Assembly (NCBI RefSeq): GCF_008189405.1 | Contig: NZ_CP043316.1 | Coordinates: 558,258 to 622,257, forward strand | DNA from: Candidatus Cytomitobacter primus | GTDB taxonomy: Bacteria; Pseudomonadota; Alphaproteobacteria; CAJXXZ01; 1604HC | Length of the DNA stretch: 64,000 nucleotides | Direction: 5' to 3' | Shown here: positions 10,452-30,510 of the stretch, piece by piece | Numbering within the stretch: position 1 is the stretch's first letter | Layout: each line of letters begins with the position of its first letter | Program-made: the position numbers and the translations under genes | The notes under the pieces: generated by a model | The model's input: only the letters and a program-made list of their open reading frames with translations | Told to the model about the DNA's origin: nothing | The model's database searches: none

Positions 10452-10570
10452 ACATATATCAGAATTATAAGATGTAACCACACACTTACATTAAGTATAA
10501 AGTAATCATATAATCATAATCTGTAAAGCCTTAGAATGCTTATTTCAGGTAGGTTTTCCTGCAAAATCTC

Positions 10571-10599
10571 TTGTTATTTAGGTGTAAATGTAACATAAT
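10571..10599 (+). promoter_or_regulatory. sigma70-like promoter TTGTTA-N17-CATAAT of family copy 1, followed by RBS AAGGGAG at 10612-10618
   Basis: The same hexamers with the same 17-nt spacing occur upstream of all three family copies. The surrounding ~80 bp is identical between copy 1 and copy 2. Confidence 0.5.
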
Positions 10600-10622
10600 A
10601 AGTCAATTTATAAGGGAGATAT

Positions 10623-12233
10623 ATGAAGAATCTAAGAATTTTATCACTGGTATTATGCTTATCAGTTATGGCAAATGGCCCAGAATTAACGGAATGCACA
10701 AGTAAGTTTGCATATTGTTTGAAGAGTCCTGGTCTCGCAACAGAAGATGCTGTGCAAACCAATCAAATGGAAAAATATACTCAAGCAATTTATGATGAGT
10801 ATAATCAATATGCATTAAGCATTATTCCAAGCTTGGAAGGCAAGAAGTTAAATGTAATTAATATGATGCAAATAGGATATGAAACAAACGAAGATGATGC
10901 AGAAGAACGAGCAGAATATATTAATGATTTAAATGAAGGATCACTGGAAGAATTATATGAAGGATTAACAGAAATTGAAGAACACACTATTCTGCGATAC
11001 GTTTATGAATCTCGTCCTTACATAATGAAGCAGAGTGCTCGCTATGCGGAGTTAGCAGATGCGTATGGTAATTATGACATGGATGGGGATGTATTCAAAA
11101 ATGCTGTGTATCTTGCTGACAGGTCTCAAAATGGAACATTAGAAGTTGATTGGGACTTAGAATCAGATAGGTTGGAAGCTCATAGTTTGTACTACAATTC
11201 AATATATGAGTACAACCTAGAAAATCCAGGATTATCGATGCTGAGCGATAAAGCGGAAGCAGCAAAGGTTAATGCAACTATTTTACAATCCCTATCAAAA
11301 GACAAGGAACATTTTACAAACATTGCAAAGCATATTGCGTTAAAGAAGATGGCAGTTGAGGCGGCAAAAGGCTTGGAGAAATTTAAAATCATGCTTGATG
11401 AGGTTGTTAGACAGGATGCATCTTGGAATGTAATTAGAACTGTCAAGGTAGGGAATGCTATGCAAAAGCATTTTAAGGAGGCTGATAAGTATGTTAGCTG
11501 CCAATCATGGATTCAAGTAACAGATGAAGGAAGTGGCATTGGAACTTATAGAACTATTTTTGGAAGTAAAGATAGAATAAAATTTGCTGAGATCATAGAT
11601 TTATTTAATACAGATAGAGCAAAATGCAAAGAAACTGTTTTGTGTAGATTTAGCAAAGGTTTAGAAAACTATAATAATGATTTTAATAGATTATTGCTAT
11701 ACCCAGATTTCAACATAAGATTTGATCAATTAACTGAGATGACTGTTAATGCACTAGAGGATATGTTAAATGCAATTATTAGGAGTAAGCTTTATTATAA
11801 AGTTGGAAATGGAGGAGGAGACCGAAAATTCCAAGCATATTATCCCGGGGAGGAGCGTAGAGGTGACGTTGAGTTTTTCAAGAAGGATTATGCTGACTGG
11901 TATGCAAAATCTGATGGAGACAAGGCTGTTACAGCATTAAGAAAAGAAGAAGCTGCTAAGCTTGCGAAGGAACGTGATCATGAGGATTATATCGTACACT
12001 TGTTTGACAGAGCAGAGGAATTGCTGAATGGATACGAAGGTGATAAGGACATGATGGGAGAGATCTTTGGAAACTTCTTGTTCTTAAGATGGGCAGAATA
12101 CAAGGAGAATGCTAGAGGGCGAGACTTCATGAACAGTGCAAAGGATGCATTAGAGGGCATGTTAAAACTGGAATCTTCAGACATTGAAAAACTAAATGCA
12201 ATCTCAAACGAAAAAATCAAATCCCTGCAATAA
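10623..12233 (+). CDS. secreted mosaic paralogue family protein, copy 1 (unknown function)
   Basis: 536 aa. Sec signal peptide MKNLRILSLVLCLSVMA|NGPEL. Conserved central block (LRYVYESRPYIMKQSARYAELADAYGNYDMDGDVF...) and conserved C-terminal block (YYPGEERRGDVEFFKKDYADWYAKSDGDK...) shared almost base-for-base with copies at 23735-25070 and 28899-30497. No recognisable domain. Confidence 0.85.
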   Translation: MKNLRILSLVLCLSVMANGPELTECTSKFAYCLKSPGLATEDAVQTNQMEKYTQAIYDEYNQYALSIIPSLEGKKLNVINMMQIGYETNEDDAEERAEYINDLNEGSLEELYEGLTEIEEHTILRYVYESRPYIMKQSARYAELADAYGNYDMDGDVFKNAVYLADRSQNGTLEVDWDLESDRLEAHSLYYNSIYEYNLENPGLSMLSDKAEAAKVNATILQSLSKDKEHFTNIAKHIALKKMAVEAAKGLEKFKIMLDEVVRQDASWNVIRTVKVGNAMQKHFKEADKYVSCQSWIQVTDEGSGIGTYRTIFGSKDRIKFAEIIDLFNTDRAKCKETVLCRFSKGLENYNNDFNRLLLYPDFNIRFDQLTEMTVNALEDMLNAIIRSKLYYKVGNGGGDRKFQAYYPGEERRGDVEFFKKDYADWYAKSDGDKAVTALRKEEAAKLAKERDHEDYIVHLFDRAEELLNGYEGDKDMMGEIFGNFLFLRWAEYKENARGRDFMNSAKDALEGMLKLESSDIEKLNAISNEKIKSLQ

Positions 12234-12290
12234 TATGTCTGTATTAATCCATAAACTTAACAAACCTATATAAGATTAAGGAATTAATAT
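11761..12290 (+). repeat. conserved 3' block of the paralogue family, copy 1 (~530 bp including ~55 bp past the stop)
   Basis: Near-identical to the reverse complement of 23690-24241 (one visible silent mismatch) and highly similar to ~30040-30510. Confidence 0.8.
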
Positions 12291-12983
12291 ATTTGATTTC
12301 CTACTTAAAGCTCATTTATGGAAGTTAAATATAGTAGTTTTCAGATTATTTATTTTCAGAGCATATGCAAGTATTATCATGAAATTATATAAAACAAGAA
12401 AATATTATTATGCATTCCCTAAGCTGTTAAGATGAAGTTGCTTTATAATGGAGTGAAAATCATAGCTCTCGTGAAATAAATACTTATCTTATGGAATGAG
12501 TTAGTTACATTAGGCAAAACTCAGTCTATAATCTTTTAATGTACCGAGTCCTTTCTCAGCAAATCACTAAAAAATATAAGTTTACTGTAGAAATATTGTG
12601 CACGGCTGATACTGCCACATCATTCTAATATGGTGAATTATATATATTAGAAAAGATAAAGAAAATTCTAAGTTAAATTAAAAAAACATTCAAAATCATC
12701 TGAATATTATTTGCTATAATTATAAAATCAATAAGCGAAAATCATGCATAAGCAAACTTCTAATAAAAACATTAATTGAAAGGGGAATTATAAAAGTTTT
12801 GAAGCATTATGCTTTGAGTTATAAATATATGGTTTGTATGATTTAACAAATATGCAAATGAAGAAAATCAAAACATATCATAGCATGGAAGAAATCAGCC
12901 ATAGGATAACAAACAAAATCACATAATAACTTACAAATGCAAAAATCTAATCTACTAGCTATTTAGATAAATTGGATTTTAGA

Positions 12984-13694
12984 TTATTTTGTTGTTTCAT
13001 TATCAGATTGCTTTGACTCTGATTTATCTGATTTTGGTTTATCTTCAGATTGAGCATCGTTTTGTTCAATGCTTTTTCTTGAAACAATTATGTTCCATTT
13101 TCTTTCCATTCTAATAATGAAGAAAGGAAGTTTTTTATTTCTCATGGTTTGCAATATATTGGAAGACTTTCCACCTATTGATCTAAATTCAATTTGACTT
13201 GAAGGAAGAAATGCTTTCACACCCCACGGAAGTAAAGCAACTATAAACCCACCACGTACTTTTTCTATAATAGTTCCTTCAACCAATTTTTTGCTTTGAA
13301 AAATATCTTCTAATTCTTTCCAAGATCTAATATGGTTAACTTTAGAAAAACTAACTACTAAAGATCCATTAGAATCTTCGTGTTTTTCGATCCAAACTGA
13401 AATCAAATCTCCAAGATTAGGAACCTCTCCAAATCCATTAATTTTGAATTCGTTTATATCTATTTTACCTTCGGCTTTAATGCCAATATTAACCCATACA
13501 TAATCTTTAGTAATGCTACTTACTGTAGCTTGAACTATGCTTTTTTCTCTGGGCATAGAAGATAACTTAGTCAGTTCTGACATTGCACTTACGTGTTCTG
13601 ATTTAACCTCTACTATTTGATCGTATTTTGTTTGCTTTGGTTTTAAACTATGCATGTCAACATTATATTCCAACACTTTGTTATAATCAAGCAT
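12984..13694 (-). CDS. S1 RNA-binding domain protein (RpsA-like, short)
   Basis: 236 aa. Two S1-like OB segments (ATVSSITKDYVWVNIGIKAEGKIDINEF and VEGTIIEKVRGGFIVALLPWGVKAFLPSSQIEF). Lys/Ser/Asp-rich tail. Confidence 0.5.
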   Translation of the reverse strand: MLDYNKVLEYNVDMHSLKPKQTKYDQIVEVKSEHVSAMSELTKLSSMPREKSIVQATVSSITKDYVWVNIGIKAEGKIDINEFKINGFGEVPNLGDLISVWIEKHEDSNGSLVVSFSKVNHIRSWKELEDIFQSKKLVEGTIIEKVRGGFIVALLPWGVKAFLPSSQIEFRSIGGKSSNILQTMRNKKLPFFIIRMERKWNIIVSRKSIEQNDAQSEDKPKSDKSESKQSDNETTK

Positions 13695-13753
13695 ATTAGT
13701 AGATATTGCTAAAAATGCACATATAATATATAGATTAGAGGTAAAGGAGTTTT

Positions 13754-15271
13754 ATGAATCAAAATATAAAAGCTAATATGTTGAGCAATTTGCTTGGCAA
13801 AATAGTTAGCTTGTTCTTTCCTATTAAGAAAACAGAAATTAAGAAATACCTTCCTACAGCTATGATGATGTTTATCATTTTATTTAACTATAACGTTGTA
13901 AGAACTTTGAAAGATGCTTTGATCATTGCAGACAGAATATCTGGAGCGGAGGCTGTGAACTTTTTGAAAACATTTGTTGTATTGCCTGCTTCTATTATTT
14001 TTGTGCTTTTGTATAGCAAAATAAGCAATATGTTTAGTAAAACCAATGTGTTTTATGTATGTATCGCGCCATTTATTGTATTTAATATTGTATTTACTTA
14101 TATTTTATACCCTAATGTGGGTTCATTACACCCATCTGCTGAGAGTATTCAAGCTTTGAAGCTTGCTTATCCTAAGCTAAGATCAGTATTTCCTGCGTAT
14201 GGATTATGGACTTATTCTTTGTACTACACATTCTCAGAATTATGGGGAACAGTTGGTATGACATTATTGTTTTGGCAGTTTGCAAACAGAATTGTGAAGA
14301 GTGAAGAATCCAAGAGATTTTACCCATCATTTGGTTTGGTTGGTAATATCGGATTCACAATCGCATCATTTATGGTTATGAATGTTGTTTCTTCACCATC
14401 ATCATTTGCGCAGAATTTTACGTATATTATGAATGTTGTAATCATTTTAAGTCTTGTATTAGTCGCAATATATTGGGGTATCAACAAATATGTACTTACA
14501 GATGAAGATATTGATTGCAATATAAATAAACCTAAAAAGAAGAAAGTAAAGCCTTCATTAGTTGAAAGTTTTAAAATTATATTTTCATCTAAATACTTGG
14601 GATGTATCATGCTTTTGATTTTTTCTTATAACTCTATGATTAATTTAGTAGAAGTTACTTGGAAGAGCCAGGTAAAAGCTTATACATTTTCAAATGATGC
14701 AGAAGCTGCAAGATCAGGTTATACAGCATTAATTGCTAAAACAAATGCATATACCGGATCAGTTTCTATATTATTATTTGCAACAGCAAACTTTTTGTTG
14801 AGTAGATTTAAGTGGGCTGTATCTGCTTCTATTACTCCAATAATCATGGTTTCTACATCCATATTGTTTTTCTTGTTCACAGTATTTCCTAAATTTGCTG
14901 GACCATTAACAAGTATGTTGTCAGTAACACCATTGTTCTTGGCAGTTATTATGGGTGCAATCCAAAATGTTGCAAGTAAAAGTACTAAGTACTCTTTATT
15001 TGACCCTACAAAAGAAATGACATATATTCCTTTGGATTCTGAATTGAAAAGTAAAGGTAAGGCTGCAGTAGACATTGCTGGAAGCAGGATCTCTAAATCA
15101 TTTGGTGGATTAGTACAGTTATTCTTACTATTCGTTACTGGAGGAAGTCAGTTAGATATTGCTCCTTATCTAATGATCTTTATTGTTACAATTGGAGTGA
15201 TTTGGTTTGTAGCTATTAAGCTATTATCAAAACAATATGATGAAGCTTTAAAATCCGATAAGTGTGAATAG
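13754..15271 (+). CDS. tlc: ATP/ADP translocase (nucleotide transporter Tlc/NTT family)
   Basis: 505 aa polytopic membrane protein. N-terminal KKYLPTAMMMFIILFNYNVVRTLKDALII matches the Rickettsia/Chlamydia Tlc signature. Confidence 0.8.
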   Translation: MNQNIKANMLSNLLGKIVSLFFPIKKTEIKKYLPTAMMMFIILFNYNVVRTLKDALIIADRISGAEAVNFLKTFVVLPASIIFVLLYSKISNMFSKTNVFYVCIAPFIVFNIVFTYILYPNVGSLHPSAESIQALKLAYPKLRSVFPAYGLWTYSLYYTFSELWGTVGMTLLFWQFANRIVKSEESKRFYPSFGLVGNIGFTIASFMVMNVVSSPSSFAQNFTYIMNVVIILSLVLVAIYWGINKYVLTDEDIDCNINKPKKKKVKPSLVESFKIIFSSKYLGCIMLLIFSYNSMINLVEVTWKSQVKAYTFSNDAEAARSGYTALIAKTNAYTGSVSILLFATANFLLSRFKWAVSASITPIIMVSTSILFFLFTVFPKFAGPLTSMLSVTPLFLAVIMGAIQNVASKSTKYSLFDPTKEMTYIPLDSELKSKGKAAVDIAGSRISKSFGGLVQLFLLFVTGGSQLDIAPYLMIFIVTIGVIWFVAIKLLSKQYDEALKSDKCE

Positions 15272-15439
15272 AAAATCTTTTCTTTTTAAATGCATTGAGT
15301 GCTTTAATTAGTATTTCATTATCATTGTTTTTTTATCTTTATCTTATTTATTTAATTTTAACTTTTAATTTTTAACCTGATAATGATTAATCATTATATT
15401 TCTATTACAATATGATTTTCTTTATGAAATAATAAAATT

Positions 15440-16420
15440 ATGTTTAATATCGCAATTATCGGGGCTACAGGTCTTATTGGTAGATCTATTATAGATGTAT
15501 TACATGAGCGCGCATTTCCAATTAAGAATTTATACTTATTAAGTAGAGTAGAACAAGAAATTTCATTTAAAGATGAAGTATTAAAATGTACGAAGCTTGA
15601 GGACTTTGATTTTAAGTCTGTAGATATCATTTTTAATGCAACTGATAAAGATGTACTAATGAAATATATTGGCGAGATCACAGAATCTGGAGCATTTTTG
15701 ATTGATAAATCTGAAGCACTTAGAATGGATAAAGATATTCCACTTATTGTTCCAGAAGTTAATTCTGATCAATTAGATAGTTATATTACTAATAATAAAA
15801 TTATTTCTTCTCCAAATTGTGTAGCTATTCCTATGTCCATTATAATTAGAACATTGTCACATAAAACAGCAATTGAACAAATTTTCATGACCACATTTCA
15901 ATCTGTATCTGGAGCAGGCAATAATGGGACTAAAGCATTATTAGATGAAACAAAGAAAAGTTTTATGGCATCAAGTGTGAATGCAACTAATTTCGAAAAA
16001 AGCATAGCATTTGATATTTTGCCTAAAATCGGAAGTTTTAATTCTGACTTTACGACTTCTGAAGAATTGAAAATAAAACAGGAAATGCAGAAGATATTAA
16101 ATAATAAGTTAAATATCTGTGTAACATGCACTCGTGTGCCAGTACTAAAGGGACATGGAGTTGATTTGCATATTCCTTGTAAGTTTAAGGATAGAAATGA
16201 TGCAATTAAAGCACTAAAGAGCTCTGATGTGATTCACGTATGTGATAGAGATGATGCCTATATTACTCAGAAAGAATCCATAGGTGAGGATAAAATTTCT
16301 ATAAGCAGAGTGAGATATATTGATGGAATTTTAAGTATGTGGATTGCATATGATAATGTACGATTTGGTGGATCTGTAAATGGAGTGAAAATTGCTGAAG
16401 CAATTACAAAATCACTTTGA
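15440..16420 (+). CDS. asd: aspartate-semialdehyde dehydrogenase
   Basis: 326 aa. N-terminal Rossmann IAIIGATGLIGR, motif IVPEVN, catalytic SSPNCVAIP. Confidence 0.8.
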   Translation: MFNIAIIGATGLIGRSIIDVLHERAFPIKNLYLLSRVEQEISFKDEVLKCTKLEDFDFKSVDIIFNATDKDVLMKYIGEITESGAFLIDKSEALRMDKDIPLIVPEVNSDQLDSYITNNKIISSPNCVAIPMSIIIRTLSHKTAIEQIFMTTFQSVSGAGNNGTKALLDETKKSFMASSVNATNFEKSIAFDILPKIGSFNSDFTTSEELKIKQEMQKILNNKLNICVTCTRVPVLKGHGVDLHIPCKFKDRNDAIKALKSSDVIHVCDRDDAYITQKESIGEDKISISRVRYIDGILSMWIAYDNVRFGGSVNGVKIAEAITKSL

Positions 16421-16628
16421 TTGTAAAGAAAATAAAATAATAGCTGTACAGCATAGTAATAGCGCAATAATTGTAAAATATATTAACAATGAATAGTATA
16501 ATCGAAATTAATAAGATAAAGTAAAGCTAATATAATTTAATCATATAAGATGAAACAGAATAAAATATGTAGGGTAAAGTGCTTACACATTTACTAATAG
16601 AAAACTGCTATATGCTTTAATAGCGTAT

Positions 16629-17021
16629 CTATTTAGGTTCATAATGTGTCCAATTAGAGAACATGCTATACGCTCTAATAATGTGTCCATCAGGATCTGA
16701 AACTGCAAAAGTACGACCATAACATTCATCAGTTGGTTTTTGCACAACTTTCACATCAAGCTCATTTTGCCATTTATCAAAAAACACATCTACATCTTCT
16801 GTAGATTTCACGTGGATTCCAATTTCAGAAAACCTTACAATAGAAGTGTCTGGAGTTCTGGTTCCTTCACATATTGCAAATGATGAGTCTGCACCAGCTG
16901 CAAATTCTACATAACCAGGGTTAGCAAATACAGGTTTAGCATCAAACAGCTTTTCATAAAAAGCAGTTGAAGATTCCATATTAGATACATAAATAATTTG
17001 TAAATTTGGTCTAATTGTCAT
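16629..17021 (-). CDS. glyoxalase/VOC family protein
   Basis: 130 aa. Paired beta-alpha-beta-beta-beta-like segments typical of lactoylglutathione lyase-like VOC proteins. Confidence 0.45.
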   Translation of the reverse strand: MTIRPNLQIIYVSNMESSTAFYEKLFDAKPVFANPGYVEFAAGADSSFAICEGTRTPDTSIVRFSEIGIHVKSTEDVDVFFDKWQNELDVKVVQKPTDECYGRTFAVSDPDGHIIRAYSMFSNWTHYEPK

Positions 17022-17168
17022 TAAATTTTTTCCTTTGAATTAGAAATAACACTAATTATACCTTTAAACAAGAGTGCTAAATGTGCAAATAATTGCTTTT
17101 CCTCATGGCAAAACATATTCCATTTTAACTAGATATGCATGAATATTCATTATTATATATAGATGCAT

Positions 17169-17879
17169 TTAATTTAAAGATGTGATTTCGCTTAAGTTGT
17201 TGATAAAAGCTTGCATTGTAAATAATCCTGGGTTTTGATTTACAAGCCATTCACATACTTTCAAAGCATCATTTGCATAAATTTTGCGATTAAATACTTG
17301 ATGCTCAAATCGAATCATTTCTTGATTGTTTAAACCAAGGAATTGATGCATAGACATATTATCTCCTGCTCTTAAAGACCATATTTGATCAGCTTGTATT
17401 TTATCATGAAGCTGCTTAGTAGTCCCAGATGGATTGTCTGCTTTGTTTTTATGGTGTACTTCTCCAATTGAAACTGCAAGATTTCTTATTTTATTAATTT
17501 TCTCAATAGAAGATTGAATAATACTCCATGAAATTGATGTGTTTGGAGCCCATAGAATTGGAATAATATTTTGATATGCTTTGTAATCAGATGCAGTATG
17601 ACTGCCTGTAGTTCCAATAAGGATTGGTATATTGTATTGAACAGCTGATTTAATATTATTTAATGTGGATTGATGATTGGAGAAATCCAGAATCACATCA
17701 GCTCCTTTTTCAATATGATTTGATATCTTTGTATTATTTTGCGTTAGTGCAACCCCATGATACTGAGTATTTTCCCTAATAACCGCAGAGTGTATTATTA
17801 TGTTTTGCATTTGAGCAATTTGGATAATAGCTTGACCCATTCTACCATTTGCACCTACTATACATATTTTCATAATCAT
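17169..17879 (-). CDS. dapB: 4-hydroxy-tetrahydrodipicolinate reductase
   Basis: 236 aa. N-terminal MKICIVGANGRMGQAII NAD(P)-binding motif. Length and layout fit DapB. Confidence 0.65.
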   Translation of the reverse strand: MIMKICIVGANGRMGQAIIQIAQMQNIIIHSAVIRENTQYHGVALTQNNTKISNHIEKGADVILDFSNHQSTLNNIKSAVQYNIPILIGTTGSHTASDYKAYQNIIPILWAPNTSISWSIIQSSIEKINKIRNLAVSIGEVHHKNKADNPSGTTKQLHDKIQADQIWSLRAGDNMSMHQFLGLNNQEMIRFEHQVFNRKIYANDALKVCEWLVNQNPGLFTMQAFINNLSEITSLN

Positions 17880-17901
17880 ATTTTAACATCGATCAGATTA
17901 T

Positions 17902-18708
17902 ATGCATATGAATTTACATTCAATGTTTTATTATTCAGCTGATTCTGTTAAGTTTGATCTAATGATTACAGAATATATATTACATGGCATATTTGAAGCT
18001 TTTCCGGTTAGTTCTTCGATGCACTCAATGTTATTTAATTATGCAATGCAAAATAGCTATGTTATGCAAAATATTGGCATAATTGGGATATTACATGGCA
18101 TCACAGCAATTGTGACAATTGTATATTTTCATAAAAGTATAATTAAGTTATTAATAGATTTTATAAAACCAGGTCATTACAATTTTCTTTCTTGGAAACT
18201 ATGTTTGATTCTACTACCTAAATTATTATTTGGATTTATTTACAGAAATGCGAATTTCCCTTTTTCTTTTTATACAATAATTGCATTTGGACTGCTACTT
18301 GCCTTTTATGATATTTATTCCCATCAAAATAAAAAAGCTCATGAAATATCTTATATGCAGTCTATTTTTATTAGTTTTCTAAGTTTATTTGCATTCTTAC
18401 CGGGAGCAAGTAGTTTAGGAACTTACTATACAGCTTTTAGAGCATGCAACATTAATAGGAAGGAATCTCTTGATTATGCATTTATTTTGAATGTGATCCC
18501 ATCTATAGGTGCATTTGTGTTAAGATTTACTTATGTTGAAGTAAATTTAGTACGAATTTTTACTTGCATGTTTGTATACTTATTTGCACTAATTCTTTGT
18601 AGAAAATTAATAAATTATTTATATTTGCTAGGTATTTATAGAGTGATTATAGGAATATGGGTATGTCAAAACATAAATATACAAAAATACTTTTACTGTG
18701 CTTTTTAA
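17902..18708 (+). CDS. uppP: undecaprenyl-diphosphatase (BacA/UppP family)
   Basis: 268 aa polytopic. EAFPVSSSMHS block resembles the UppP TEFLPVSSTGH motif and PGASSLGT resembles PGxSRSG. Somewhat divergent. Confidence 0.5.
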   Translation: MHMNLHSMFYYSADSVKFDLMITEYILHGIFEAFPVSSSMHSMLFNYAMQNSYVMQNIGIIGILHGITAIVTIVYFHKSIIKLLIDFIKPGHYNFLSWKLCLILLPKLLFGFIYRNANFPFSFYTIIAFGLLLAFYDIYSHQNKKAHEISYMQSIFISFLSLFAFLPGASSLGTYYTAFRACNINRKESLDYAFILNVIPSIGAFVLRFTYVEVNLVRIFTCMFVYLFALILCRKLINYLYLLGIYRVIIGIWVCQNINIQKYFYCAF

Positions 18709-20369: not shown

Positions 20370-20476
20370 TAAATATGGTTAAATTATATGATATCTGTAT
20401 AGTGAATTTAACTTAATTTTTGCTCAATAATACATTAAGGGCTTGATTAACCCAAAATTTATGGTAGATTAGTACC

Positions 20477-22150: not shown

Positions 22151-22236
22151 TAGACACGCTGAGCAGTGAAGAATCTGATGAAAGTGAAGAACTTGATGAA
22201 GATATAGAAAATATACAATTTCTAAAAAATGAGCTA

Positions 22237-23241
22237 ATGGTAAATGGAAATAGTATTGGAAATCTTTATGTTGTACGTGGTTGCACAAAAGTAGTACTTA
22301 ATGATATAAAATTGACAGGAAATAAGTTAAGTATTCTGGATAAAATTATTAGTATAAATGAGTTAAGATATCTTGATTTAGTGAATTGTGCTTTGACCAA
22401 GGCTTTACCTAATATATTTACTTTACAACTATTAGAATGCCTATCTTTATCTAATAACAACTTATCAGAAATTGTAATAGCAAAAAAAACACTACCATGT
22501 TTAAGAAAGCTTGATTTATCTCGTAATAATTTATCAAAATTCAGTTGTAGGTTTCTACGACAAATAGAAGATTTGGATTTAAGTAGAAATAAAATTAGTG
22601 ACCTTAAATATATAAAAAATATGAAAAATCTAGTTTCTTTAAATATAGCTAATAATAATATAGATCAATTAGATGATATTGGCGATTTAGTTAATATAGA
22701 AATACTTAACTTTGTAAATAATCGTATTTCAAAATTACCATGCTTAGATGCTCTGCAAAAATTACGTGGATATTATGCACGTAATAATAGGTTTGCATGC
22801 ATAGAAGAAACTTTCAAACCTATTCATAATATAATTTGTAGGAAAGTTCCAATAGGCGTAATATATAATCCAGATACTATGAGATATGTTGTGAAATATG
22901 GTTATCATCATACAATGAATGATGCTCTATATTACCTTCCCTATGAGATGCATATTTGTGGTGGGGATGGAAAAGAATATGATGCAATAGAGAAAGTCTC
23001 ACATACCGATGACGATAAGATATCTAAATTCAAAAAAGAATATAGAGTTGGAATTCCCAATTATAATTCTAAACATAGAATGCAAATACATGGAAATGTA
23101 GATAAAGGGATATATGATTTCATTAGTCATTATGTAACTGTGGATTGTGTGTATTGTGAAGTCAGTAGTACTAATAGACCCCCATCTAATTATGAAGATA
23201 ATTTTCAAAACATGCAGAGATGCGCATGCTATGGCTATTAG
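22237..23241 (+). CDS. leucine-rich repeat protein, C-terminal part
   Basis: 334 aa. Tandem LRRs (LDLSRNNLSKF, LDLSRNKISDLKYIKNMKNLVSLNIANNNIDQL). Its reading frame is open upstream to at least 22141, which suggests it was originally fused to the 20477-22150 ORF. Confidence 0.6.
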   Translation: MVNGNSIGNLYVVRGCTKVVLNDIKLTGNKLSILDKIISINELRYLDLVNCALTKALPNIFTLQLLECLSLSNNNLSEIVIAKKTLPCLRKLDLSRNNLSKFSCRFLRQIEDLDLSRNKISDLKYIKNMKNLVSLNIANNNIDQLDDIGDLVNIEILNFVNNRISKLPCLDALQKLRGYYARNNRFACIEETFKPIHNIICRKVPIGVIYNPDTMRYVVKYGYHHTMNDALYYLPYEMHICGGDGKEYDAIEKVSHTDDDKISKFKKEYRVGIPNYNSKHRMQIHGNVDKGIYDFISHYVTVDCVYCEVSSTNRPPSNYEDNFQNMQRCACYGY

Positions 23242-23689
23242 ATTTGTTTATCATTAGTAATTATGCATCTTGATATTTATTCGTAATGTTTTTTATTATG
23301 CCTTATAATACCATTTTCAATTAATAAATTAAACTTAAGTTACTTTGAATCGCAATCATTTATACCAGAAGATTAGATTAACTATATAAAAATATTAGAT
23401 CTTTGAAGCAGTTGGTTGAAAGGTTTATACATATAATAAGATCATAGTTAGTTAGGATAGCAATGAGAGAAGGGAATTATTTCTACTGCTAATAGTTATG
23501 ACCATTTGATGTTATGACAATATATATCATCATAAGGTAAATGGATGGGATGAATAATTTAGAATATCTATACATTATGCTGCTTCGATTGCCTAAAAAT
23601 GTATTTTCAATAATCTCAATTAATAAATCATAGTATTATATACTATTATAAACTAATCCTATATATCAATAACGTAATAACATTTTTCT

Positions 23690-24241
23690 TAATATTATAT
23701 AGGTTTGTTAAGTTTATGGATTAATACAGACACATTATTGCAGGGATTTGATTTTTTCGTTTGAGATTGCATTTAGTTTCTCAATGTCTGAAGATTCTAG
23801 TTTTAACATGCCCTCTAATGCGTCCTTTGCACTGTTCATGAAGTCTCGCCCTCTAGCATTCTCCTTGTATTCTGCCCATCTTAAGAACAAGAAGTTTCCA
23901 AAGATCTCTCCCATCATGTCCTTATCACCTTCGTATCCATTCAGCAATTCCTCTGCTCTGTCAAACAAGTGTACGATATAATCCTCATGATCACGTTCCT
24001 TCGCAAGCTTAGCAGCTTCTTCTTTTCTTAATGCTGTAACAGCCTTGTCTCCATCAGATTTTGCATACCAGTCAGCATAATCCTTCTTGAAAAACTCAAC
24101 GTCACCTCTACGCTCCTCCCCGGGATAATATGCTTGGAATTTTCGGTCTCCTCCTCCATTTCCAACTTTATAATAAAGCTTACTCCTAATAATTGCATTT
24201 AACATACTTATCAGCCTCCTTAAAATGCTTTTGCATAGCAT
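23690..24241 (-). repeat. conserved 3' block of the paralogue family, copy 2
   Basis: Reverse complement is near-identical to 11761-12290. Confidence 0.8.
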
Positions 24242-25070
24242 TCCCTACCTTGACAGTTCTAATTACATTCCAAGATGCATCCTGTCTAACAACCTCATCA
24301 AGCATGATTTTAAATTTCTCCAAGCCTTTTGCCGCCTCAACTGCCATCTTCTTTAACGCAATATGCTTTGCAATGTTTGTAAAATGTTCCTTGTCTTTTG
24401 ATAGGGATTGTAAAATAGTTGCATTAACCTTTGCTGCTTCCGCTTTATCGCTCAGCATCGATAATCCTGGATTTTCTAGGTTGTACTCATATATTGAATT
24501 GTAGTACAAACTATGAGCTTCCAACCTATCTGATTCTAAGTCCCAATCAACTTCTAATGTTCCATTTTGAGACCTGTCAGCAAGATATACAGCATTTTTG
24601 AATACATCACCATCCATGTCATAGTTACCATACGCATCTGCTAACTCCGCATAGCGAGTACTCTGCTTCATTATGTAAGAACGGGACTCATAAACGTATC
24701 GCAACATGGCATATTCAGTAGCTTGCTCATCCTTTAAATTATTTAGTTGTTCTTGCAACTCTTCTTCACTATATTTAGATAATGATTCTATGTATTCATC
24801 TTCATCATCTTGGTTAATCATTTGCATATATACGATTGATTTACACTTATTATCTGTAAGATCTTTAACAACTTCTTTAGTTCCATCAAGTACAGTTTGA
24901 TAAAACTCATCATCTCTACATTCTAAATTAGATTCCTCCAGCTCTATTGCTAAAGATTGATCAGATTTCTTCAAACAATATGCAAATTTACTTGTGCATT
25001 CCGTTAATTCTGGGCCATTTGCCATAACTGATAAGCATAATACCAGCGATAAAATTCTTAGATTCTTCAT
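23735..25070 (-). pseudogene. paralogue family copy 2, disrupted by an internal deletion of ~100 codons plus a frameshift
   Basis: Two overlapping ORFs in different frames. The 294-aa N-terminal part (signal peptide plus central block) ends at 24186 with KEADKYVKCNY. The 168-aa C-terminal block begins at 24241 with MLNAIIRSKLYYKVGNGGG. The region homologous to copy 1 aa ~292-395 is missing. Confidence 0.7.
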
Positions 25071-25093
25071 ATATCTCCCTTATAAATTGATTT

Positions 25094-25122
25094 ATTATGT
25101 TATATTTACACCTAAATAACAA
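25094..25122 (-). promoter_or_regulatory. sigma70-like promoter TTGTTA-N17-CATAAT of family copy 2 (reverse strand)
   Basis: Reverse complement of 25071-25150 is identical to 10543-10622, including the RBS AAGGGAG. Confidence 0.45.
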
Positions 25123-25217
25123 GAGATTTTGCAGGAAAACCTACCTGAAATAGGCATAATTTATATAATATTTAGGTAGCAATCTTATAGAGTGTACTAT
25201 TTCTAATAATAATTATC

Positions 25218-25763
25218 CTAATCGAATATTTCTTCTTTTATCACTTTCCCACCCATATCAAACTGCTTCCATATTCCTGATTTATTTCCATCTATGTATT
25301 GTCCAAATTCTAGAATATTAGATGATTTTGGGTGATATGTAATAGAATTTCCGTAAAGTAAATCATCTTTATAATTCTCTTCTTTGACTAAATACCCTTT
25401 TCCAAATATGAAAAATGCTCCATGTTTTTTATTATCCTTATATGCTCCTATTTGCGATAAATTACGATTCTCAAATATATACATAGCGCCATCTGGTTTT
25501 TCACCCTTATAGTTCATGATCAAACTTAATTCACCATTTTTATAAATTTCTACAACTCCATCAATTTTCCCATCTTTATAATTGACTCTTTGTGCAATGG
25601 ATCCATTTTTATAATATATGCTCTCTCCATTTCGCACGCCATCTTTCAATATATGCTTCTCAACAACTTTTCCATCAATCACAACTTCTTCAAATTGTTG
25701 CTCTGGAATTTCTTCAGTTTTACAGTTCAATTCATGCTTTTTTATAATCTGCTCAATATTCAT
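25218..25763 (-). CDS. MORN-repeat (MORN_2 / YwqK-like) protein, translationally coupled to vgrG
   Basis: 181 aa. Repeated YKNG/YKDGK/YKGEKPDG units. Its ATG shares one nucleotide with the vgrG stop (TAATG). Confidence 0.6.
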   Translation of the reverse strand: MNIEQIIKKHELNCKTEEIPEQQFEEVVIDGKVVEKHILKDGVRNGESIYYKNGSIAQRVNYKDGKIDGVVEIYKNGELSLIMNYKGEKPDGAMYIFENRNLSQIGAYKDNKKHGAFFIFGKGYLVKEENYKDDLLYGNSITYHPKSSNILEFGQYIDGNKSGIWKQFDMGGKVIKEEIFD

Positions 25764-28700
25764 TAGTTTAAATTCACCATTCCTGCTTTTATATTAATCA
25801 TTGCTGATGCTTCAATATCTGCTGTTGTATCACTTTTTAGCGCCACAATTCCTCCTTTTAAGTTTAAATTACCCCCAGCTTCCAAAGTTAGGTTTCCTCC
25901 AGATTTAATTGTAAAATTGCTAGATGCCTTATATGTAATCTGATTTGCTTCAATTTCCATATTTCCTCCTGAGATTTTGATAGTATGATTTCCACTATTA
26001 ATCGTTATATCTTTGTTCCCGGAAATTTCTTCTTTACTATTACCATTCCCTAGATTTATTTCCATATTCCCTTTAGAAATTTCGATATTCATATTTCCAT
26101 CCTGAAGTGTAATTTCTTTATTTCCCTTGTTTAAATCTAATTTATAATTACCTTCCTCAATTTTCGTAATCATATCTCCATTTTTGAGCTCAGTGAGGAA
26201 ATGCTTCGCTTCCTCTGATTCTAATTTAATCTCTTTGTTCCCTTTTTTGATGATTAATATATCATTTCCTTCTCCATCTGTAGGTTCATCTTCCCCAGAC
26301 AATTCTACCTTTCGATCTCCACGCCCAATAATCAATTCTGAAGATCCAGTTTGAATTGTAGAGCTTTTACCATCTTTAATAATTTCCTCATAATCTTTCT
26401 CAGCATGCAAAAATATTTTTTCTTCATTTGCTTTGTCCTCAAAGCTAAATTCATTGAATCCACGCTCTTCGCCTTCTTCAACATCTTTTAGCGATTCTGT
26501 TTTTAGGCCAGTTTTCGAAATAACATCTTCAGTTTCAACCAGATTATACGGTGGCATTGTAGTTCTATTATATAAGCACCCTGTAATAATTGGGTAATTT
26601 GGATTCCCATTTTCGAATGAAATTACAACTTCTTGCCCTATACGAGGAACAAAAAATCCTCCCCATTCATTTCCAGCGCCTCCCCATTGCGCAACACGAA
26701 TCCATACAGCTTGCTGCAGCATCTCTCCATTACTCAAATTCTTTCTCCCATTATCCCAATGGAAATAAACTTTCACTTGCCCTAGGTGATTTGTATAGAT
26801 TTTCTGATCCTCTCCACCAACAACAATTCCTGTCTGAATTCCTGCAATTTTCCTGTATGGCTCAGGTTTGACTTTAAATGGTTGATCAATTTTCGAAAAC
26901 ACGGCGCTATTTTCATAGTGTAAAACCATATCATCCAAATCTACAGTAGCATCATCCATATTTTTATCCACAGCCTGATATTCTAATTTATGAGAAACTC
27001 GCTTTACATAATACTGCCCATTCATCTCAATATCTGGGTGATGCGTAAGAACAAACTTGTATCCAGGGCTAACTTCCTGACGAAAAGTTTTTGTATGATA
27101 TTCTGTCTCACTTGTATCTGCATGTTGATTGCATATTCCATTATATTCTTTCACTTTTTGATCTGAGGTAAATGTTTCGCTATAATGATCATCCACATCG
27201 CTAGCAGAACTCTCTGATGAATTTGCCCCAGAGGAATTTTCAACTTCATGAATTATATTGCGCTTTTCAGGGTCAAGATCTGGGTTGAATCCTTGAAGTT
27301 GGGTGGAATTAGGGGCATATTTATGTGCAACATTCCATTGCGAGATATATTTATCGTTACGACCCTCCAATCCAGTTGTTGTATAATGCAAAGGACGAGA
27401 ATCGGTGAATGGGTCGGACATATCAAAAACTTTTGAAACAGCTCCATCTTCTACAGCCCCTTTCCCCTTAGATTGCGATTCAGCAACAATTTGCGTGTCA
27501 AAACCATCGTCGAAAATACTCATTTCTCCACTTTGTACGGAAGTATAGGCGTTCGCTCCTTTGGAGGCTAACTCTCCTGTGGGGCTATAGTTTTCAATGG
27601 CATTTTCATACCCTAAATATGTTTTATATGGCGAGGGAGATGAGGAAGCAGAAGGAGAAACACTACCTGATTCATCAGCAATTTCTGCACCATCTCCAGA
27701 ATTAAACCCAGCCAAATCATCTTCCTCTTCCTCGTCATCCGCATCATAGTTAGCATCTGCACTATCTGACACATCTGCTCCCTGAGGATTATTATAAAAC
27801 ACAATCCCTGTATGCACGTCCGTATGCTCAAAACAATAATAAACCCCAAAATCCCTACACAACCGATTCAATAACTCCCAATCCGTCTCCTCATACTGCA
27901 CTATATATTCAGGAAAATCCTCCTGTTCACTCTTAGCAAAATTTGTCTGATCATCATAATTCAAATATTTACTCCTTGGATTCTCAATCGCAGCCATACG
28001 ATATTGTGCATCCAAAATACTCATATTAATATCAATAATTACCTTATCATAATGATTATCATGCTGGTCATTCTTTGCCTCAAATTCATCTATTTGAATT
28101 TCATAATCATCTGATTGTGATTCATAATTTCCATGTATGGCAACTAATTCTGAAGTTCTATCTTTTGATTTTTCATCTTTTAAAGTTATATTATTTTTCT
28201 TTATTAATCTTTCAATAATATTTGCCATTAATTTTGACTTGTTAAATATGATATCTTGATTTTGCTCAACTGGTGCGTCATCTACAGATGGATAGAAAAT
28301 ACGATTACGTTTTGTGCCTAATTTAAATTGCATTTCAGGAATCATGCTAAACCCATAAACATAATATTGCTCTTCCTTAGTTGGGGTTTTTATTCCTAAA
28401 TATGTCCATTCATTGATTATTCCATGCCAATATTTTCTATCAATATTTGGCTTGCCAACACTTAAGCCCATGTGCATTTTTTTACTAATCATATTTGGTT
28501 TTTTCTCAAAAAATGCAACTTCTCCTTGAATAAAGAATGGTTGAGATAACCCTTCCTCTATATTAACTTTATAAACTCTCCCTAAATGACGTTTATATCT
28601 TCTATCTTCATCAGTTTTAGGTTGCCATTGATCATAACCTAAGGTCGCTAATCCAATCATTTCAAAATCAGAATTATCTTCAACCTTTTGGTTATGCTTA

Positions 28701-28768
28701 TAAGTATTATTATAATCTTCTTCTAAGGTATAATCTTTTTTTTCGAGCTCTTCAGGCATTTGAGACAA
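25763..28768 (-). CDS. vgrG: type VI secretion spike protein VgrG
   Basis: 1001 aa. gp5-like OB-fold block VAQWGGAGNEWGGFFVPRIGQEVVISFENGNPNYPIITGCLYN. C-terminal beta-helix repeats (SGNKDITINSGNHTIKISGGNMEIEANQITYK...). Acidic low-complexity insert (DADDEEEEDDLAGFNSGDGAE...). Confidence 0.85.
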   Translation of the reverse strand: MSQMPEELEKKDYTLEEDYNNTYKHNQKVEDNSDFEMIGLATLGYDQWQPKTDEDRRYKRHLGRVYKVNIEEGLSQPFFIQGEVAFFEKKPNMISKKMHMGLSVGKPNIDRKYWHGIINEWTYLGIKTPTKEEQYYVYGFSMIPEMQFKLGTKRNRIFYPSVDDAPVEQNQDIIFNKSKLMANIIERLIKKNNITLKDEKSKDRTSELVAIHGNYESQSDDYEIQIDEFEAKNDQHDNHYDKVIIDINMSILDAQYRMAAIENPRSKYLNYDDQTNFAKSEQEDFPEYIVQYEETDWELLNRLCRDFGVYYCFEHTDVHTGIVFYNNPQGADVSDSADANYDADDEEEEDDLAGFNSGDGAEIADESGSVSPSASSSPSPYKTYLGYENAIENYSPTGELASKGANAYTSVQSGEMSIFDDGFDTQIVAESQSKGKGAVEDGAVSKVFDMSDPFTDSRPLHYTTTGLEGRNDKYISQWNVAHKYAPNSTQLQGFNPDLDPEKRNIIHEVENSSGANSSESSASDVDDHYSETFTSDQKVKEYNGICNQHADTSETEYHTKTFRQEVSPGYKFVLTHHPDIEMNGQYYVKRVSHKLEYQAVDKNMDDATVDLDDMVLHYENSAVFSKIDQPFKVKPEPYRKIAGIQTGIVVGGEDQKIYTNHLGQVKVYFHWDNGRKNLSNGEMLQQAVWIRVAQWGGAGNEWGGFFVPRIGQEVVISFENGNPNYPIITGCLYNRTTMPPYNLVETEDVISKTGLKTESLKDVEEGEERGFNEFSFEDKANEEKIFLHAEKDYEEIIKDGKSSTIQTGSSELIIGRGDRKVELSGEDEPTDGEGNDILIIKKGNKEIKLESEEAKHFLTELKNGDMITKIEEGNYKLDLNKGNKEITLQDGNMNIEISKGNMEINLGNGNSKEEISGNKDITINSGNHTIKISGGNMEIEANQITYKASSNFTIKSGGNLTLEAGGNLNLKGGIVALKSDTTADIEASAMINIKAGMVNLN

Positions 28769-28846
28769 TATATGAGATGATGGTTAATATTCTCTTAAAA
28801 TTATGCTGGGCTTTCCTACAATTTATTAATAAACACCACATAAATC

Positions 28847-28875
28847 TTGTTATTTAAGGATAGATGGAACATAAT
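28847..28875 (+). promoter_or_regulatory. sigma70-like promoter TTGTTA-N17-CATAAT of family copy 3, followed by RBS AAGGGAG
   Basis: Same hexamers and spacing as copies 1 and 2. Divergent from the vgrG promoter region. Confidence 0.45.
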
Positions 28876-28898
28876 AAGTCAATTTATAAGGGAGATAT

Positions 28899-30497
28899 AT
28901 GAAGAATCTAAAAATCTTATCATTACTATTATGTTTATCAGTTATGGCAAATGGCCCAGAATTAACGGAATGTACAAGTAAGTTTGCGTATTGTTTGAAG
29001 AGTCCTGGTCGCGCAACGGAAGTTGCTGTGCCAAATATGGGTGCACAGGTTCTCACTGATGCCGTATATAAAAAGAGATACGATATAGTAAAGGGTGCAA
29101 TTCCATCAATAGATGAAGAGAAGTGCAAATATCTTGTATATACAATGATTATTAATAGAAAAAGCAAACCAGAATATGTTAAGAAAATAGGTGAGAATAC
29201 AGTTGAGCAATTGTTTGCAGGTTTATCCAATGCGGATAAATCATATGCCATGCTGCGATACGTTTATGAATCTCGTCCTTACATAATGAAGCAGAGTGCT
29301 CGCTATGCGGAGTTAGCAGATGCGTATGGTAACTATGACATGGATGGGGATGTGTTCAAGAATGCTATGTATTTGGCAGAGAGATCTCAAAATGGAACCT
29401 TAGAAGTTGATTGGGACTTAGAGTCAGATAGGCTAGAAGCTCATAGTTTGTATTATAACTCGATATATGAGTACAACCTAGAAAATCCAGGATTATCGAT
29501 GATTAGTGACAAAGCAGAAGCAGCAAAGGTTAATGCAACTATTTTACAATCCCTATCAAAAGACAAGGAACATTTTACAAACATTGCAAAGCATATTGCA
29601 TTAAAGAAGATGGCAGTTGAGGCAGCTAAGGGGTTAGAGAAATTTAAAATCATGCTTGATGAGGTTGTAAGGCAGGATGCGTCTTGGAATATGGTTCATA
29701 TAGTTCAGATGAACAAGGCTGCACAAAAGCATTTTAAAGATACTCAACTTTATTTAGATGATTTGGTAGGCGTAGAAATAACTATGTCAGATCTGAGATC
29801 AATTAAGAATGTCCAAGGTGGATATGTAGTTATTTTTGGCGATAAAGACAAAGTAAAATTTGATGAGATTATAGAATTATTTAATACAGATAGGGAAAAA
29901 TGCAAAGAGCTTATTTGGGAAAGAATAGTAGCGGGAGAAGAATATATAAACAAATATATAGTGAAGCCTATGTTTGATAAGCTCTTTAATGAGATGGAAA
30001 AGATGGACAAAGAAGTATTGCAAGAGGTAATAAATAGATCACGTAAAGAGAAAGTTTGGGGTGAAGTAGGAAATAGGGGAGGAGGAAAGAAGTTTCGCGC
30101 ATACTACCCAGGAGAGGAGCGTCGAGGTGACGTTGAGTTCTTCAAGAAGGATTATGCTGACTGGTATGCAAAATCTGATGGAGACAAGGCTGTTACAGCA
30201 TTAAGAAAAGAGGAAGCTGCTAAGCTTGCGAAGGAGCGTGATCATGAGGATTATATCGTACACTTGTTTGACAGAGCAGAGGAATTGCTGAATGGGTACG
30301 AAGGTGATAAGGACGTCATGGGAGAGATCTTTGGAAACTTCTTGTTCTTAAGATGGGCAGAATACAAAGAGAATGCTAGAGGGCGAGACTTCATGAACAG
30401 TGCAAAGGATGCCCTAGAAGGTATGTTAAAACTAGAATCTTCAGACATTGAGAAACTAAATGCAATCTCAAACGAAAAAATCAAATCCCTGCAATAA
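28899..30497 (+). CDS. secreted mosaic paralogue family protein, copy 3
   Basis: 532 aa. Same signal peptide, central block and C-terminal block as copy 1. The V1 and V2 cassettes are divergent but recognisably homologous. Confidence 0.85.
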   Translation: MKNLKILSLLLCLSVMANGPELTECTSKFAYCLKSPGRATEVAVPNMGAQVLTDAVYKKRYDIVKGAIPSIDEEKCKYLVYTMIINRKSKPEYVKKIGENTVEQLFAGLSNADKSYAMLRYVYESRPYIMKQSARYAELADAYGNYDMDGDVFKNAMYLAERSQNGTLEVDWDLESDRLEAHSLYYNSIYEYNLENPGLSMISDKAEAAKVNATILQSLSKDKEHFTNIAKHIALKKMAVEAAKGLEKFKIMLDEVVRQDASWNMVHIVQMNKAAQKHFKDTQLYLDDLVGVEITMSDLRSIKNVQGGYVVIFGDKDKVKFDEIIELFNTDREKCKELIWERIVAGEEYINKYIVKPMFDKLFNEMEKMDKEVLQEVINRSRKEKVWGEVGNRGGGKKFRAYYPGEERRGDVEFFKKDYADWYAKSDGDKAVTALRKEEAAKLAKERDHEDYIVHLFDRAEELLNGYEGDKDVMGEIFGNFLFLRWAEYKENARGRDFMNSAKDALEGMLKLESSDIEKLNAISNEKIKSLQ

Positions 30498-30510
30498 TGT
30501 GTCTGTTTTG
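30040..30510 (+). repeat. conserved 3' block of the paralogue family, copy 3
   Basis: Highly similar to 11800-12245. Encodes the same YYPGEERRGDVEFFKKDYADWYAKSDGDK...KIKSLQ tail. Confidence 0.75.

Follow-up and report, generated by a model that had tools for sequence, protein, structure and literature searches.

The window analysed here is a stretch of 64,000 nucleotides (nt) from the 622-kb genome of Candidatus Cytomitobacter primus, a Holosporales endosymbiont of the marine diplonemid Diplonema japonicum that is uncultured outside its host. This DNA (G+C content 30.8%) carries three copies of a family of genes for predicted exported proteins, situated beside type VI secretion system (T6SS) genes. 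Copy 1 (10623..12233, +; 536 aa) follows the tssL-tssM-tssA run (5037..10451), formed by tssL (DotU; 5037-5771, +), tssM (5764-9591, +), and tssA (9579-10451, +). Copy 2 (23735..25070, −) is frameshifted in this assembly and reads as two open reading frames (ORFs), 24186-25070 (294 aa) and 23735-24241 (168 aa). Copy 3 (28899..30497, +; 532 aa), which has its own variable cassettes V1 and V2, is divergent from vgrG (25763..28768, −), whose product of ~1000 aa has a beta-helical C-terminal extension. Immediately downstream of vgrG lies a gene for a MORN-variant or YwqK-like protein (25218..25763, −; 181 aa), and the two genes point in the same direction as copy 2. Between copy 1 and copy 2, which are convergent, lies a spacer of 11.4 kb (12284..23684). 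The gene order given in a preliminary description of this DNA was confirmed at its main points, as tssA ends at 10451, just before copy 1, copy 2 lies downstream of the vgrG-MORN pair on the same strand, and the − strand vgrG ends at 28768, next to the start of copy 3 at 28899 (+). One assignment had to be corrected, since the 557-aa ORF at 20477-22150 encodes a leucine-rich repeat (LRR) protein and not VgrG; the sole vgrG is the one at 25763-28768 (−).

The three copies are mosaics of conserved and variable blocks. The block limits were obtained from sliding identity and repeat finding, and coordinates refer to copy 1 unless another copy is named. The protein encoded by copy 1 consists of a signal peptide and leader (residues 1-37), V1 (38-122), a central block (123-274), V2 (275-400), and a C-terminal block (401-536). 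In the DNA, a shared upstream block of 87 nt in copies 1 and 2 (10536..10622, +, and 25071..25157, −) and ~54 nt in copy 3 (28845..28898, +) precedes the coding sequence. V1 occupies 10734-10991 (+) of copy 1, 24705-24959 (−) of copy 2, and 29010-29252 (+) of copy 3. It is followed by the central block (10992 to ~11489, +) and by V2 (11490 to ~11800, +), the latter with a conserved islet at 11555-11632, and the 3' block covers 11762-12283 for copies 1 and 2 and 11800-12242 for copies 1 and 3. The upstream/leader, central, and 3' blocks of copies 1 and 2 are 97-100% identical at the nt level, and the shared blocks of copy 3 are 87-93% identical to those of the other two. V1 and V2 show 30-60% nt identity by sliding comparison, which is near random for this AT-rich DNA.

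The three copies and their mosaic layout were found as first described, and uniform divergence was not seen. However, several details apply only to copies 1 and 2, namely the identity of ~99%, the common 5' region of ~80 bp, and the tail said to extend ~55 bp past the stop codon, which is ~50 nt in copies 1 and 2 and ~10 nt in copy 3. The signal peptide, described as identical throughout, differs at two residues in copy 3. As for the cassettes, V1 is present in the three copies but copy 2 of the window lacks V2, so that only two V2 cassettes can be compared in the window. No further copy or silent cassette was detected in the 64-kb window by tblastn. In each genome with the family, every paralogue starts with an ATG and a signal peptide of its own, and in C. 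primus the shared upstream block of each copy also provides a GGGAG ribosome-binding site and, at the same offset, a promoter-like site TTGTTA-17-CATAAT (10571-10599, +; 25122-25094, −; 28847-28875, +). Promoter-like matches occur overall at chance frequency in this AT-rich window, and the promoter evidence is weak. A weak internal similarity was also observed in copy 1 between residues 427-488, in the C-terminal block, and residues 100-163, which cover the end of V1 and the beginning of the central block (~11901-12086 and ~10920-11111; tblastn E = 0.04-0.1); it could reflect an ancient internal duplication or chance.

A HMMER scan of 1.84 billion representative proteins gave only two matches outside C. 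primus (P0004 and P0005). They belong to two circular genomes of ~620 kb, OZ247489.1 (L003) and OZ247501.1 (L004), labelled "MAG: Rickettsiales bacterium" (MAG, metagenome-assembled genome). In L003, L004, and Ca. C. indipagum (L005), the family forms an inverted pair flanking vgrG and the MORN gene, and every genome with the family (four genomes) has at least two paralogues in inverted orientation around vgrG. A scan of JGI metagenome contigs showed no family member. A genome-contig collection, in which C. primus itself is apparently not included, gave no match with copy 1 as the query, and with a motif alignment as the query it gave only L003 and L004 plus one probably spurious match from Kiritimatiellae. 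When 5.8 billion clusters were searched by word index, the C. primus proteins themselves were the only matches, and a seven-member alignment as the query did not change this. Judged by sequence similarity, the family is an orphan confined to the Cytomitobacter clade in the searches made.

The synteny of the family with the vgrG-MORN pair is kept in the four genomes while the outside neighbours change, and it extends positionally to a fifth, the distant 558-kb alphaproteobacterial MAG CP060235.1 (L006). In this genome a single 441-aa ORF with a signal peptide (8593-9918, −) is divergent from vgrG, and the MORN gene comes next; the ORF is a positional analogue with marginal profile similarity (hhalign probability 18%) and without repeats. 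The MORN/YwqK-like protein of C. primus is 54-67% identical to those of the other four genomes. The family, vgrG, and the MORN/YwqK-like gene form a conserved module, whose remaining small ORFs are relic copies of the vgrG 5' end. The interval that separates the MORN gene from the second paralogue in L003 holds an ORF of 194 aa (9038-9622, +). Its signal peptide (MKYLRNIFLLLCL) is like those of the family, its profile weakly resembles the leader/V1 region (hhalign probability 57%), and the ORF may be a remnant or an additional V1-like cassette.

The mosaic of near-identical shared blocks and near-random V1 (and V2/V3 where present) recurs independently in each of the four genomes. In the L004 pair, there are only 1-2 mismatches from −96 to +140 and over ~1,280 nt after V1, against ~45% identity in V1; the C. 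indipagum pair has three variable and four near-identical blocks, and the L003 pair shows a more eroded mosaic. Divergence per block was quantified by Nei-Gojobori estimates of synonymous (dS) and nonsynonymous (dN) substitution. Between copies 1 and 3, the shared blocks have dS of 0.31-0.42 and dN/dS of 0.04-0.08, versus dS of 1.0 and dN/dS of 0.82 in V1 and dS of 1.3 and dN/dS of 0.45 in V2. Between copies 1 and 2, dS is 0 in the V2 and C-terminal blocks, 0.07 in the central block (dN/dS = 0.12), and 1.6 in V1 (dN/dS = 0.62). Overall, dS in C. primus is 0-0.4 in shared blocks versus a saturated 1.0-1.9 in V blocks (V1 1.0-1.9), where dN reaches 0.5-1.0. The synonymous excess of V over shared blocks is highly significant for copies 1 and 3 (Fisher p = 1e-7) and for copies 1 and 2 (p = 5e-22), with p = 1e-7 to 1e-23 across genomes, and in the L004 pair dS is 0.004 over 423 codons versus 1.37 in V1. 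The low dN/dS of the shared blocks denotes strong purifying selection and indicates that the genes are functional. Selection on amino acids cannot saturate synonymous sites; hence, the V blocks are much older than their flanks, and the flanks have been homogenised. These data strongly support gene conversion as the process homogenising the shared blocks.

Phylogenetic trees of the separate blocks were in agreement with this. In the trees of the shared blocks, sequences of the same genome fall together; bootstrap support is 99-100% in the case of the pairs from L003, L004, and C. indipagum and, depending on the block, 64-100% in the C. primus clade. The V1 tree does not group by genome. In Smith-Waterman comparisons, V1 of the 558-aa copy of L004 scores z = 14.6 against C. 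primus copy 3 and z = 7.8 against the 574-aa copy of L003, versus z = −0.1 against its own paralogue. As this V1 is closer to those of other species than to that of its own paralogue, at least part of the V1 divergence predates the species. A clean phylogeny of two V1 types (alpha and beta) was considered and is not claimed, being only partly supported (bootstrap 36-100%). Outside V1, the family proteins are 20-40% identical and evolve faster than VgrG, which is 48-59% identical between the four species.

The same pattern could in principle arise without conversion, if the genes had been duplicated recently and independently in each species and the V blocks had then diverged by very strong diversifying selection. 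The high dN of the V blocks would fit this explanation, and so would the tssA-adjacent copy 1, which is specific to C. primus (L003 and L004 yielded only the vgrG-flanking pair) and implies that at least one recent duplication did occur. Nevertheless, saturated synonymous sites beside flanks with dS of 0-0.4 largely refute it, V1 can be much closer to the V1 of another species than to that of its own paralogue, and the paired layout around vgrG is common to four deeply diverged species. Duplication without conversion is therefore regarded as highly improbable, and conversion is retained. The preliminary description had combined ongoing gene conversion with diversifying selection. Conversion is borne out by the dS contrast, the mosaic in four genomes, the clustering by genome, and the recombination between two assemblies of one strain presented below. 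Diversifying selection is not demonstrated, as the dN/dS values of the V blocks (0.45-0.82) are below 1 and rest on saturated dS. Since some V1 lineages are older than the species, the data point to the retention of old cassettes rather than to fast recent diversification.

The window belongs to an Illumina-only SPAdes assembly of strain YPF1604 (GCA_008189405.1), and it was compared with a PacBio HiFi assembly of the same strain (GCA_951805245.1; pieces L001 and L002). There were 0 mismatches over 38,184 unique compared bases, and the sole difference in the compared sequence is recombination inside the family, consisting of an inversion and an indel. Relative to the window, the HiFi assembly has the 11.4-kb spacer in the opposite orientation, and its copy 2 is intact (535 aa; WP_284442952.1), with a V2 identical to that of copy 1. 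A 272-nt segment comprising most of V2 (11490..11761, +) is missing from copy 2 of the window and present in that of the HiFi assembly. The deletion, whose junction lies at ~24200-24206, is bounded by the 7-nt direct repeat TATGTTA, removes V2, and shifts the frame, and copy 2 is annotated as the split QEK38785.1 and QEK38784.1 in GCA_008189405.1. Thus, copy 2 is broken as first described in the window assembly, with its two ORFs, but it is intact in the other assembly of the same strain, so the breakage is specific to an assembly or subline and is no stable property of the organism.

A map of the single-nucleotide polymorphisms (SNPs) gave the pattern XYXY up to 11108 and XYYX from 12146, which leaves a crossover interval of 1,037 nt (11109..12145, +) without a distinguishing SNP, and this interval contains the 272-nt indel. 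A single event, the repair of a double-strand break in copy 2 with copy 1 as template and with a crossover, would suffice to get from the window arrangement to that of the HiFi assembly, while the reverse route would need a slippage deletion plus an inversion. Another explanation, which concerns only the breakage of copy 2 and the orientation of the spacer, is that both are a short-read artefact or a minority variant and that the HiFi arrangement with three intact copies is the true one. C. primus was assembled from Illumina reads by SPAdes without long reads, copy 2 is intact in the HiFi assembly, and copies 1 and 2 share the 1,037 nt without a SNP (765 nt on the copy 2 that bears the deletion), a length above usual short-read inserts, so the orientation could not be phased if copy 2 was intact. 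On the other hand, the 7-nt direct repeat at the junction is what a real slippage deletion would leave behind, and de Bruijn assemblers make no junctions that are absent from the reads. The deletion also shrinks the identical stretches to ~380 and 385 nt, which paired reads can span, so the published orientation may be read-supported, and the change from window to HiFi can be explained, from the SNP map, by the single break repair. An artefact or minority variant is a substantial possibility, although less likely than not. The total lengths of the two assemblies, 622,357 and 622,378, are only 21 bp apart in spite of the 272 nt gained at copy 2 in the HiFi assembly, which implies one or more compensating indels of ~250 nt elsewhere in the genome.

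The paralogues form inverted-repeat arms, which are 166-522 nt long in C. primus and 1,310 and 263 nt long in L004, and reach 726 nt in C. indipagum and 356 nt in L003. The C. indipagum repeat continues beyond the family gene into the first 588 nt of vgrG; there, the "201-aa ORF" at 13799-14404 (−) of L005 duplicates the vgrG 5' end in inverted orientation, with 100% identity over 196 aa. An inverted relic of the vgrG 5' end, 74% identical, is found in L003 (9607-9903, −). Both copies lie beside the second paralogue and are annotated as separate hypothetical genes, and they indicate that the repeat unit includes the start of vgrG. Moreover, with respect to the pair, vgrG-MORN points one way in C. 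primus and L004 and the other way in L003, and the pair is tail-to-tail in C. indipagum rather than head-to-head. Repeat arms, vgrG relics, and changes of orientation are the footprints expected of repeated homologous inversions.

Concerning the machinery, recA is intact in the window (49863..50930, +; PF00154, E = 3.6e-131), and no recombinase or invertase was found near the module among the ORFs of at least 80 aa assigned between 0.3 and 35 kb. The RecFOR pathway is reported to be retained (George et al., bioRxiv 10.1101/719211). In the mechanism proposed, RecA/RecFOR-dependent gene conversion between paralogues would keep the shared blocks homogenised, crossovers between inverted copies would invert the intervening DNA, and the V cassettes, much older than the shared blocks, would escape homogenisation, most simply as each head is needed. 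These genetic steps are proposed with high confidence. It is also conceivable, although unlikely, that the vgrG module works as a RecA-driven flip-and-shuffle cassette, in which the inverted paralogues would recombine so frequently that one host culture holds several isomers, differing in the orientation of the spacer, in that of vgrG, and in the combination of V1 with V2 (3 x 2 possibilities in C. primus). If so, a 0.6-Mb obligate endosymbiont would run programmed variation of a new class of exported, T6SS-coupled specificity proteins, which might serve coexistence with co-resident symbionts or docking to host mitochondria.

The proteins of the family have 430-575 aa, an acidic isoelectric point (4.7-5.8), and a predicted structure that is almost entirely helical. 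All nine members and the analogue in L006 begin with a predicted signal peptide, judged by inspection and not with SignalP. Its n-region is short and basic, its hydrophobic core has 10-12 residues, and the residue at −1 of the cleavage motif is small (VMA|N, IDA|C, ITA|N, and FAG|E). The searches support the earlier statement that no known domain is recognisable. Pfam, NCBIfam, and PDB sequence searches with single proteins and with a nine-member profile gave no match, and in Pfam and NCBIfam there was neither a match at E ≤ 0.01 nor a consistent weak match across the nine members. AlphaFold2 with 4 alignment rows gave a useless model (pLDDT 39.7). With 7 rows, only residues 50-185 were confident (pLDDT 73-89), being modelled as an eight-helix bundle in which helices 1-4 correspond to V1 and helices 5-8 carry the motifs YAM(L/I)RY(V/I)YE and (E/D)(G/A)YGNY, conserved in most members and degraded in the C. 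indipagum pair; the remainder was unreliable. Comparison of this fold gave no informative match. According to the model, V1 would be a folded, homologous, and resurfaced half-domain, which is the appearance expected of a specificity-determining face.

Two more specific identities were considered and rejected. A lipoprotein or a TssJ substitute is not supported, as the cysteine of the h-region is absent in L004 and not conserved, which makes a lipoprotein unlikely, the −1 residue is Leu, and a tssA-adjacent copy exists only in C. primus. A lytic transglycosylase was suggested by a resemblance in "YESR...AYGNY", but the ES pair is not conserved in the other species and there is no support from Pfam. 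Likewise, no outer-membrane anchor, beta-barrel, lipobox, or autotransporter domain was found in the family proteins.

Regarding the rest of the window, fabZ, skp, bamA, and rseP precede tssL, and pyrG and secG follow copy 3. The spacer is a housekeeping stretch that encodes an S1-domain protein, a TLC ATP/ADP translocase, Asd, a glyoxalase, DapB, BacA, a secretin with a tetratricopeptide repeat (TPR) region, and two LRR proteins. The translocase gene (13754-15271, +), related to energy parasitism, lies within a very small genome. The secretin gene (18657-20369, +), with the TPR region at the N-terminus of its product, is inside the invertible spacer and overlaps the end of bacA by ~50 nt; in L003 and L006, the type II secretion system (T2SS) genes E and F are at most ~6 kb from the vgrG module. 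The two LRR genes (20477-22150, +, and 22237-23241, +) are at the edge of the spacer, and they adjoin copy 2 in the window arrangement and copy 1 in the HiFi arrangement; their products are plausible candidates for host-directed effectors. VgrG itself is unusual. Position 180 of the TIGR03361 model first aligns at its residue 454, so the N-terminal half must contain ~270 additional residues. Further on, a similarity to the small VgrG needle of Francisella (NF041249, E = 3.6e-7) covers residues 881-995. Pfam and NCBIfam scans revealed no toxin domain in VgrG. Three more ORFs of 229-262 aa without a Pfam match (35399-36088, 38346-39119, and 43730-44518) may be lineage-specific.

Conserved synteny with vgrG supports a link between the family and the T6SS. 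Published descriptions treat vgrG, the neighbouring LRR proteins, and the YwqK-like "immunity" gene but do not mention the family itself; they note that Hcp and TssJ seem to be absent. No substrate is known for the non-standard T6SS of Holosporales, which is reported to lack these two components. With low confidence, it is proposed that the protein would be exported to the envelope, that in the N-terminal bundle of ~135 aa the four helices of V1 would serve as a face specific to the partner, carried by a conserved scaffold, and that the protein would work with the T6SS spike module and not as classical cargo. The best guess is an exported, T6SS-linked binding protein with V1 as the specificity head, and the first choice for its role would be an immunity-like neutraliser or an envelope accessory. 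Taking the genetic and protein parts as a whole, this explanation is held to be slightly more likely than not, and an envelope-located, T6SS-linked role, neutraliser and accessory together, has about an even chance by inference.

The preliminary description had listed T6SS-associated cargo, periplasmic immunity proteins, and variable surface or secreted antigens as candidate roles. The first of them would mean that the proteins ride on VgrG and are fired into the host or into bacteria, with the MORN/YwqK-like protein as immunity or adaptor. The family does occur on both sides of vgrG in four genomes, it is fast-evolving and polymorphic, a YwqK-like gene is adjacent, and there is no other effector candidate between the flanking paralogues, the nearest being the LRR genes just outside the module. 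However, T6SS cargo is loaded in the cytoplasm, from which Sec export would remove these proteins, and all members share a conserved signal peptide of the cleavable Sec type. In addition, Pfam and NCBIfam revealed no PAAR, MIX, FIX, Rhs, DUF4150, or toxin domain in the nine members, and the variable part is N-proximal, whereas polymorphic T6SS toxins vary C-terminally. Classical cargo is thus disfavoured and considered very unlikely, and the immunity and the secreted or surface roles are kept as candidates.

The host-facing role is the more serious of the competing explanations, yet it seems doubtful. According to it, the proteins would be secreted or surface proteins that pass through Sec and are then released or exported by a T2SS or type IV pilus secretin, and the V1 heads would bind mitochondria or the cytoskeleton; the linkage to vgrG would reflect co-regulation or hitch-hiking on the inverted repeats and not a T6SS function. 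Families of ligand-binding surface proteins typically combine a signal peptide, this size, a helical and acidic nature, and a variable head on a conserved scaffold, and the present family evolves faster than its neighbours. The secretin gene in the spacer and the nearby T2SS genes of L003 and L006 also speak for it. These symbionts contact host mitochondria (PMC13598402), and Holospora relatives release periplasmic proteins into the host, as far as the reference list of PMC11909080 indicates; both facts would fit proteins that face the host. Against this, the synteny with vgrG-MORN persists in four genomes, and positionally in a fifth, despite changing outer neighbours, the proteins lack an outer-membrane anchor, beta-barrel, lipobox, or autotransporter domain, and secretion by a reduced T2SS has no support.

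The envelope-located binding protein is preferred here, but several points weigh against it or against its genetic part. The function rests on synteny and on a signal peptide judged by eye. A periplasmic immunity protein would carry a signal peptide, which is predicted here, and would have its cognate effector adjacent, but domain scans recognised no effector partner in the module and no toxin domain in VgrG. A PLD-domain gene beside the L003 copy was considered as the cognate effector and rejected, since its orthologues are remote from the module both in C. primus (57861-58448) and in L006. Furthermore, 430-575 aa exceeds the size of most immunity proteins. The trans-species grouping of V1 is clear for some pairs but yields no clean two-clade tree, the persistence of V1 could partly reflect heterology blocking conversion instead of selection, and, with one of the two assemblies Illumina-only, part of their difference could be assembly error.

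Highly reduced endosymbiont genomes are usually held to be static and repeat-poor, and here ~0.8% of a 622-kb genome is devoted to recombining paralogues under strong purifying selection. The family provides a testable handle on the role of the non-standard T6SS of Holosporales and on how several T6SS-armed symbionts share one host cell. On the practical side, the reference assembly and the HiFi assembly differ structurally at this locus, which affects the annotation of copy 2.

Lastly, the family was compared with known systems. The babA/babB/babC genes of Helicobacter pylori are full-length paralogues with their own start and signal peptide, near-identical ends, and a divergent middle, and RecA-dependent conversion between loci yields chimeras. 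The Cytomitobacter family resembles them in having few complete paralogues with near-identical 5' and 3' regions and a divergent middle. There is no relation in sequence or fold, however, as Bab proteins are beta-barrel-anchored adhesins of a pathogen under adaptive immunity and those described here are predicted to be all-helical and anchorless, belong to a protist endosymbiont, and form an inverted pair tied to vgrG. In the sapA system of Campylobacter fetus, RecA-dependent recombination between inverted homologues flips the intervening DNA without a dedicated invertase, which is comparable to the inverted paralogues with shared blocks and to the inversion between the two YPF1604 assemblies (one of them short-read only). 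The difference is that sap has one promoter in the invertible segment that chooses the expressed homologue and a conserved block only at the 5' end, whereas each C. primus copy has its own promoter-like site and conserved blocks at the 5' end, the centre, and the 3' end, and expression switching is not evident.

The hsdS shufflons (Mycoplasma pulmonis hsd and pneumococcal ivr) share the alternation of three conserved and two variable blocks and the inverted copies, but they use a site-specific recombinase, which is not found near the Cytomitobacter module, and encode DNA-specificity subunits; re-assortment of V1 and V2 is possible in principle here and was not observed. In Anaplasma msp2/p44 (Anaplasma being a reduced-genome alphaproteobacterium), Neisseria pilE/pilS, and Borrelia vlsE, hypervariable cassettes also lie within conserved flanks and conversion is the driver. 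Those systems have one expression site, many silent truncated donors, and antibody pressure, whereas Cytomitobacter has two or three complete genes and no silent cassette in the C. primus window. The Tli5b paralogues beside vgrG5-pldB of Pseudomonas aeruginosa are the immunity proteins that come closest, with a signal peptide, a helical character, several paralogues, and adjacency to vgrG. They show no sequence relation, and their cognate effector is always adjacent, while none is recognisable at the Cytomitobacter module, where the proteins are larger and undergo concerted evolution. Hence, the genetics are of a known kind, with paralogues of conserved flanks and variable cassettes, conversion, and RecA inversion, and bab, sap, msp2, and hsdS are the closest cases. 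The novelty lies in the protein family, in its fixed place as an inverted pair on either side of vgrG, and in the fact that it persists, apparently still active, in genomes of ~0.6 Mb.

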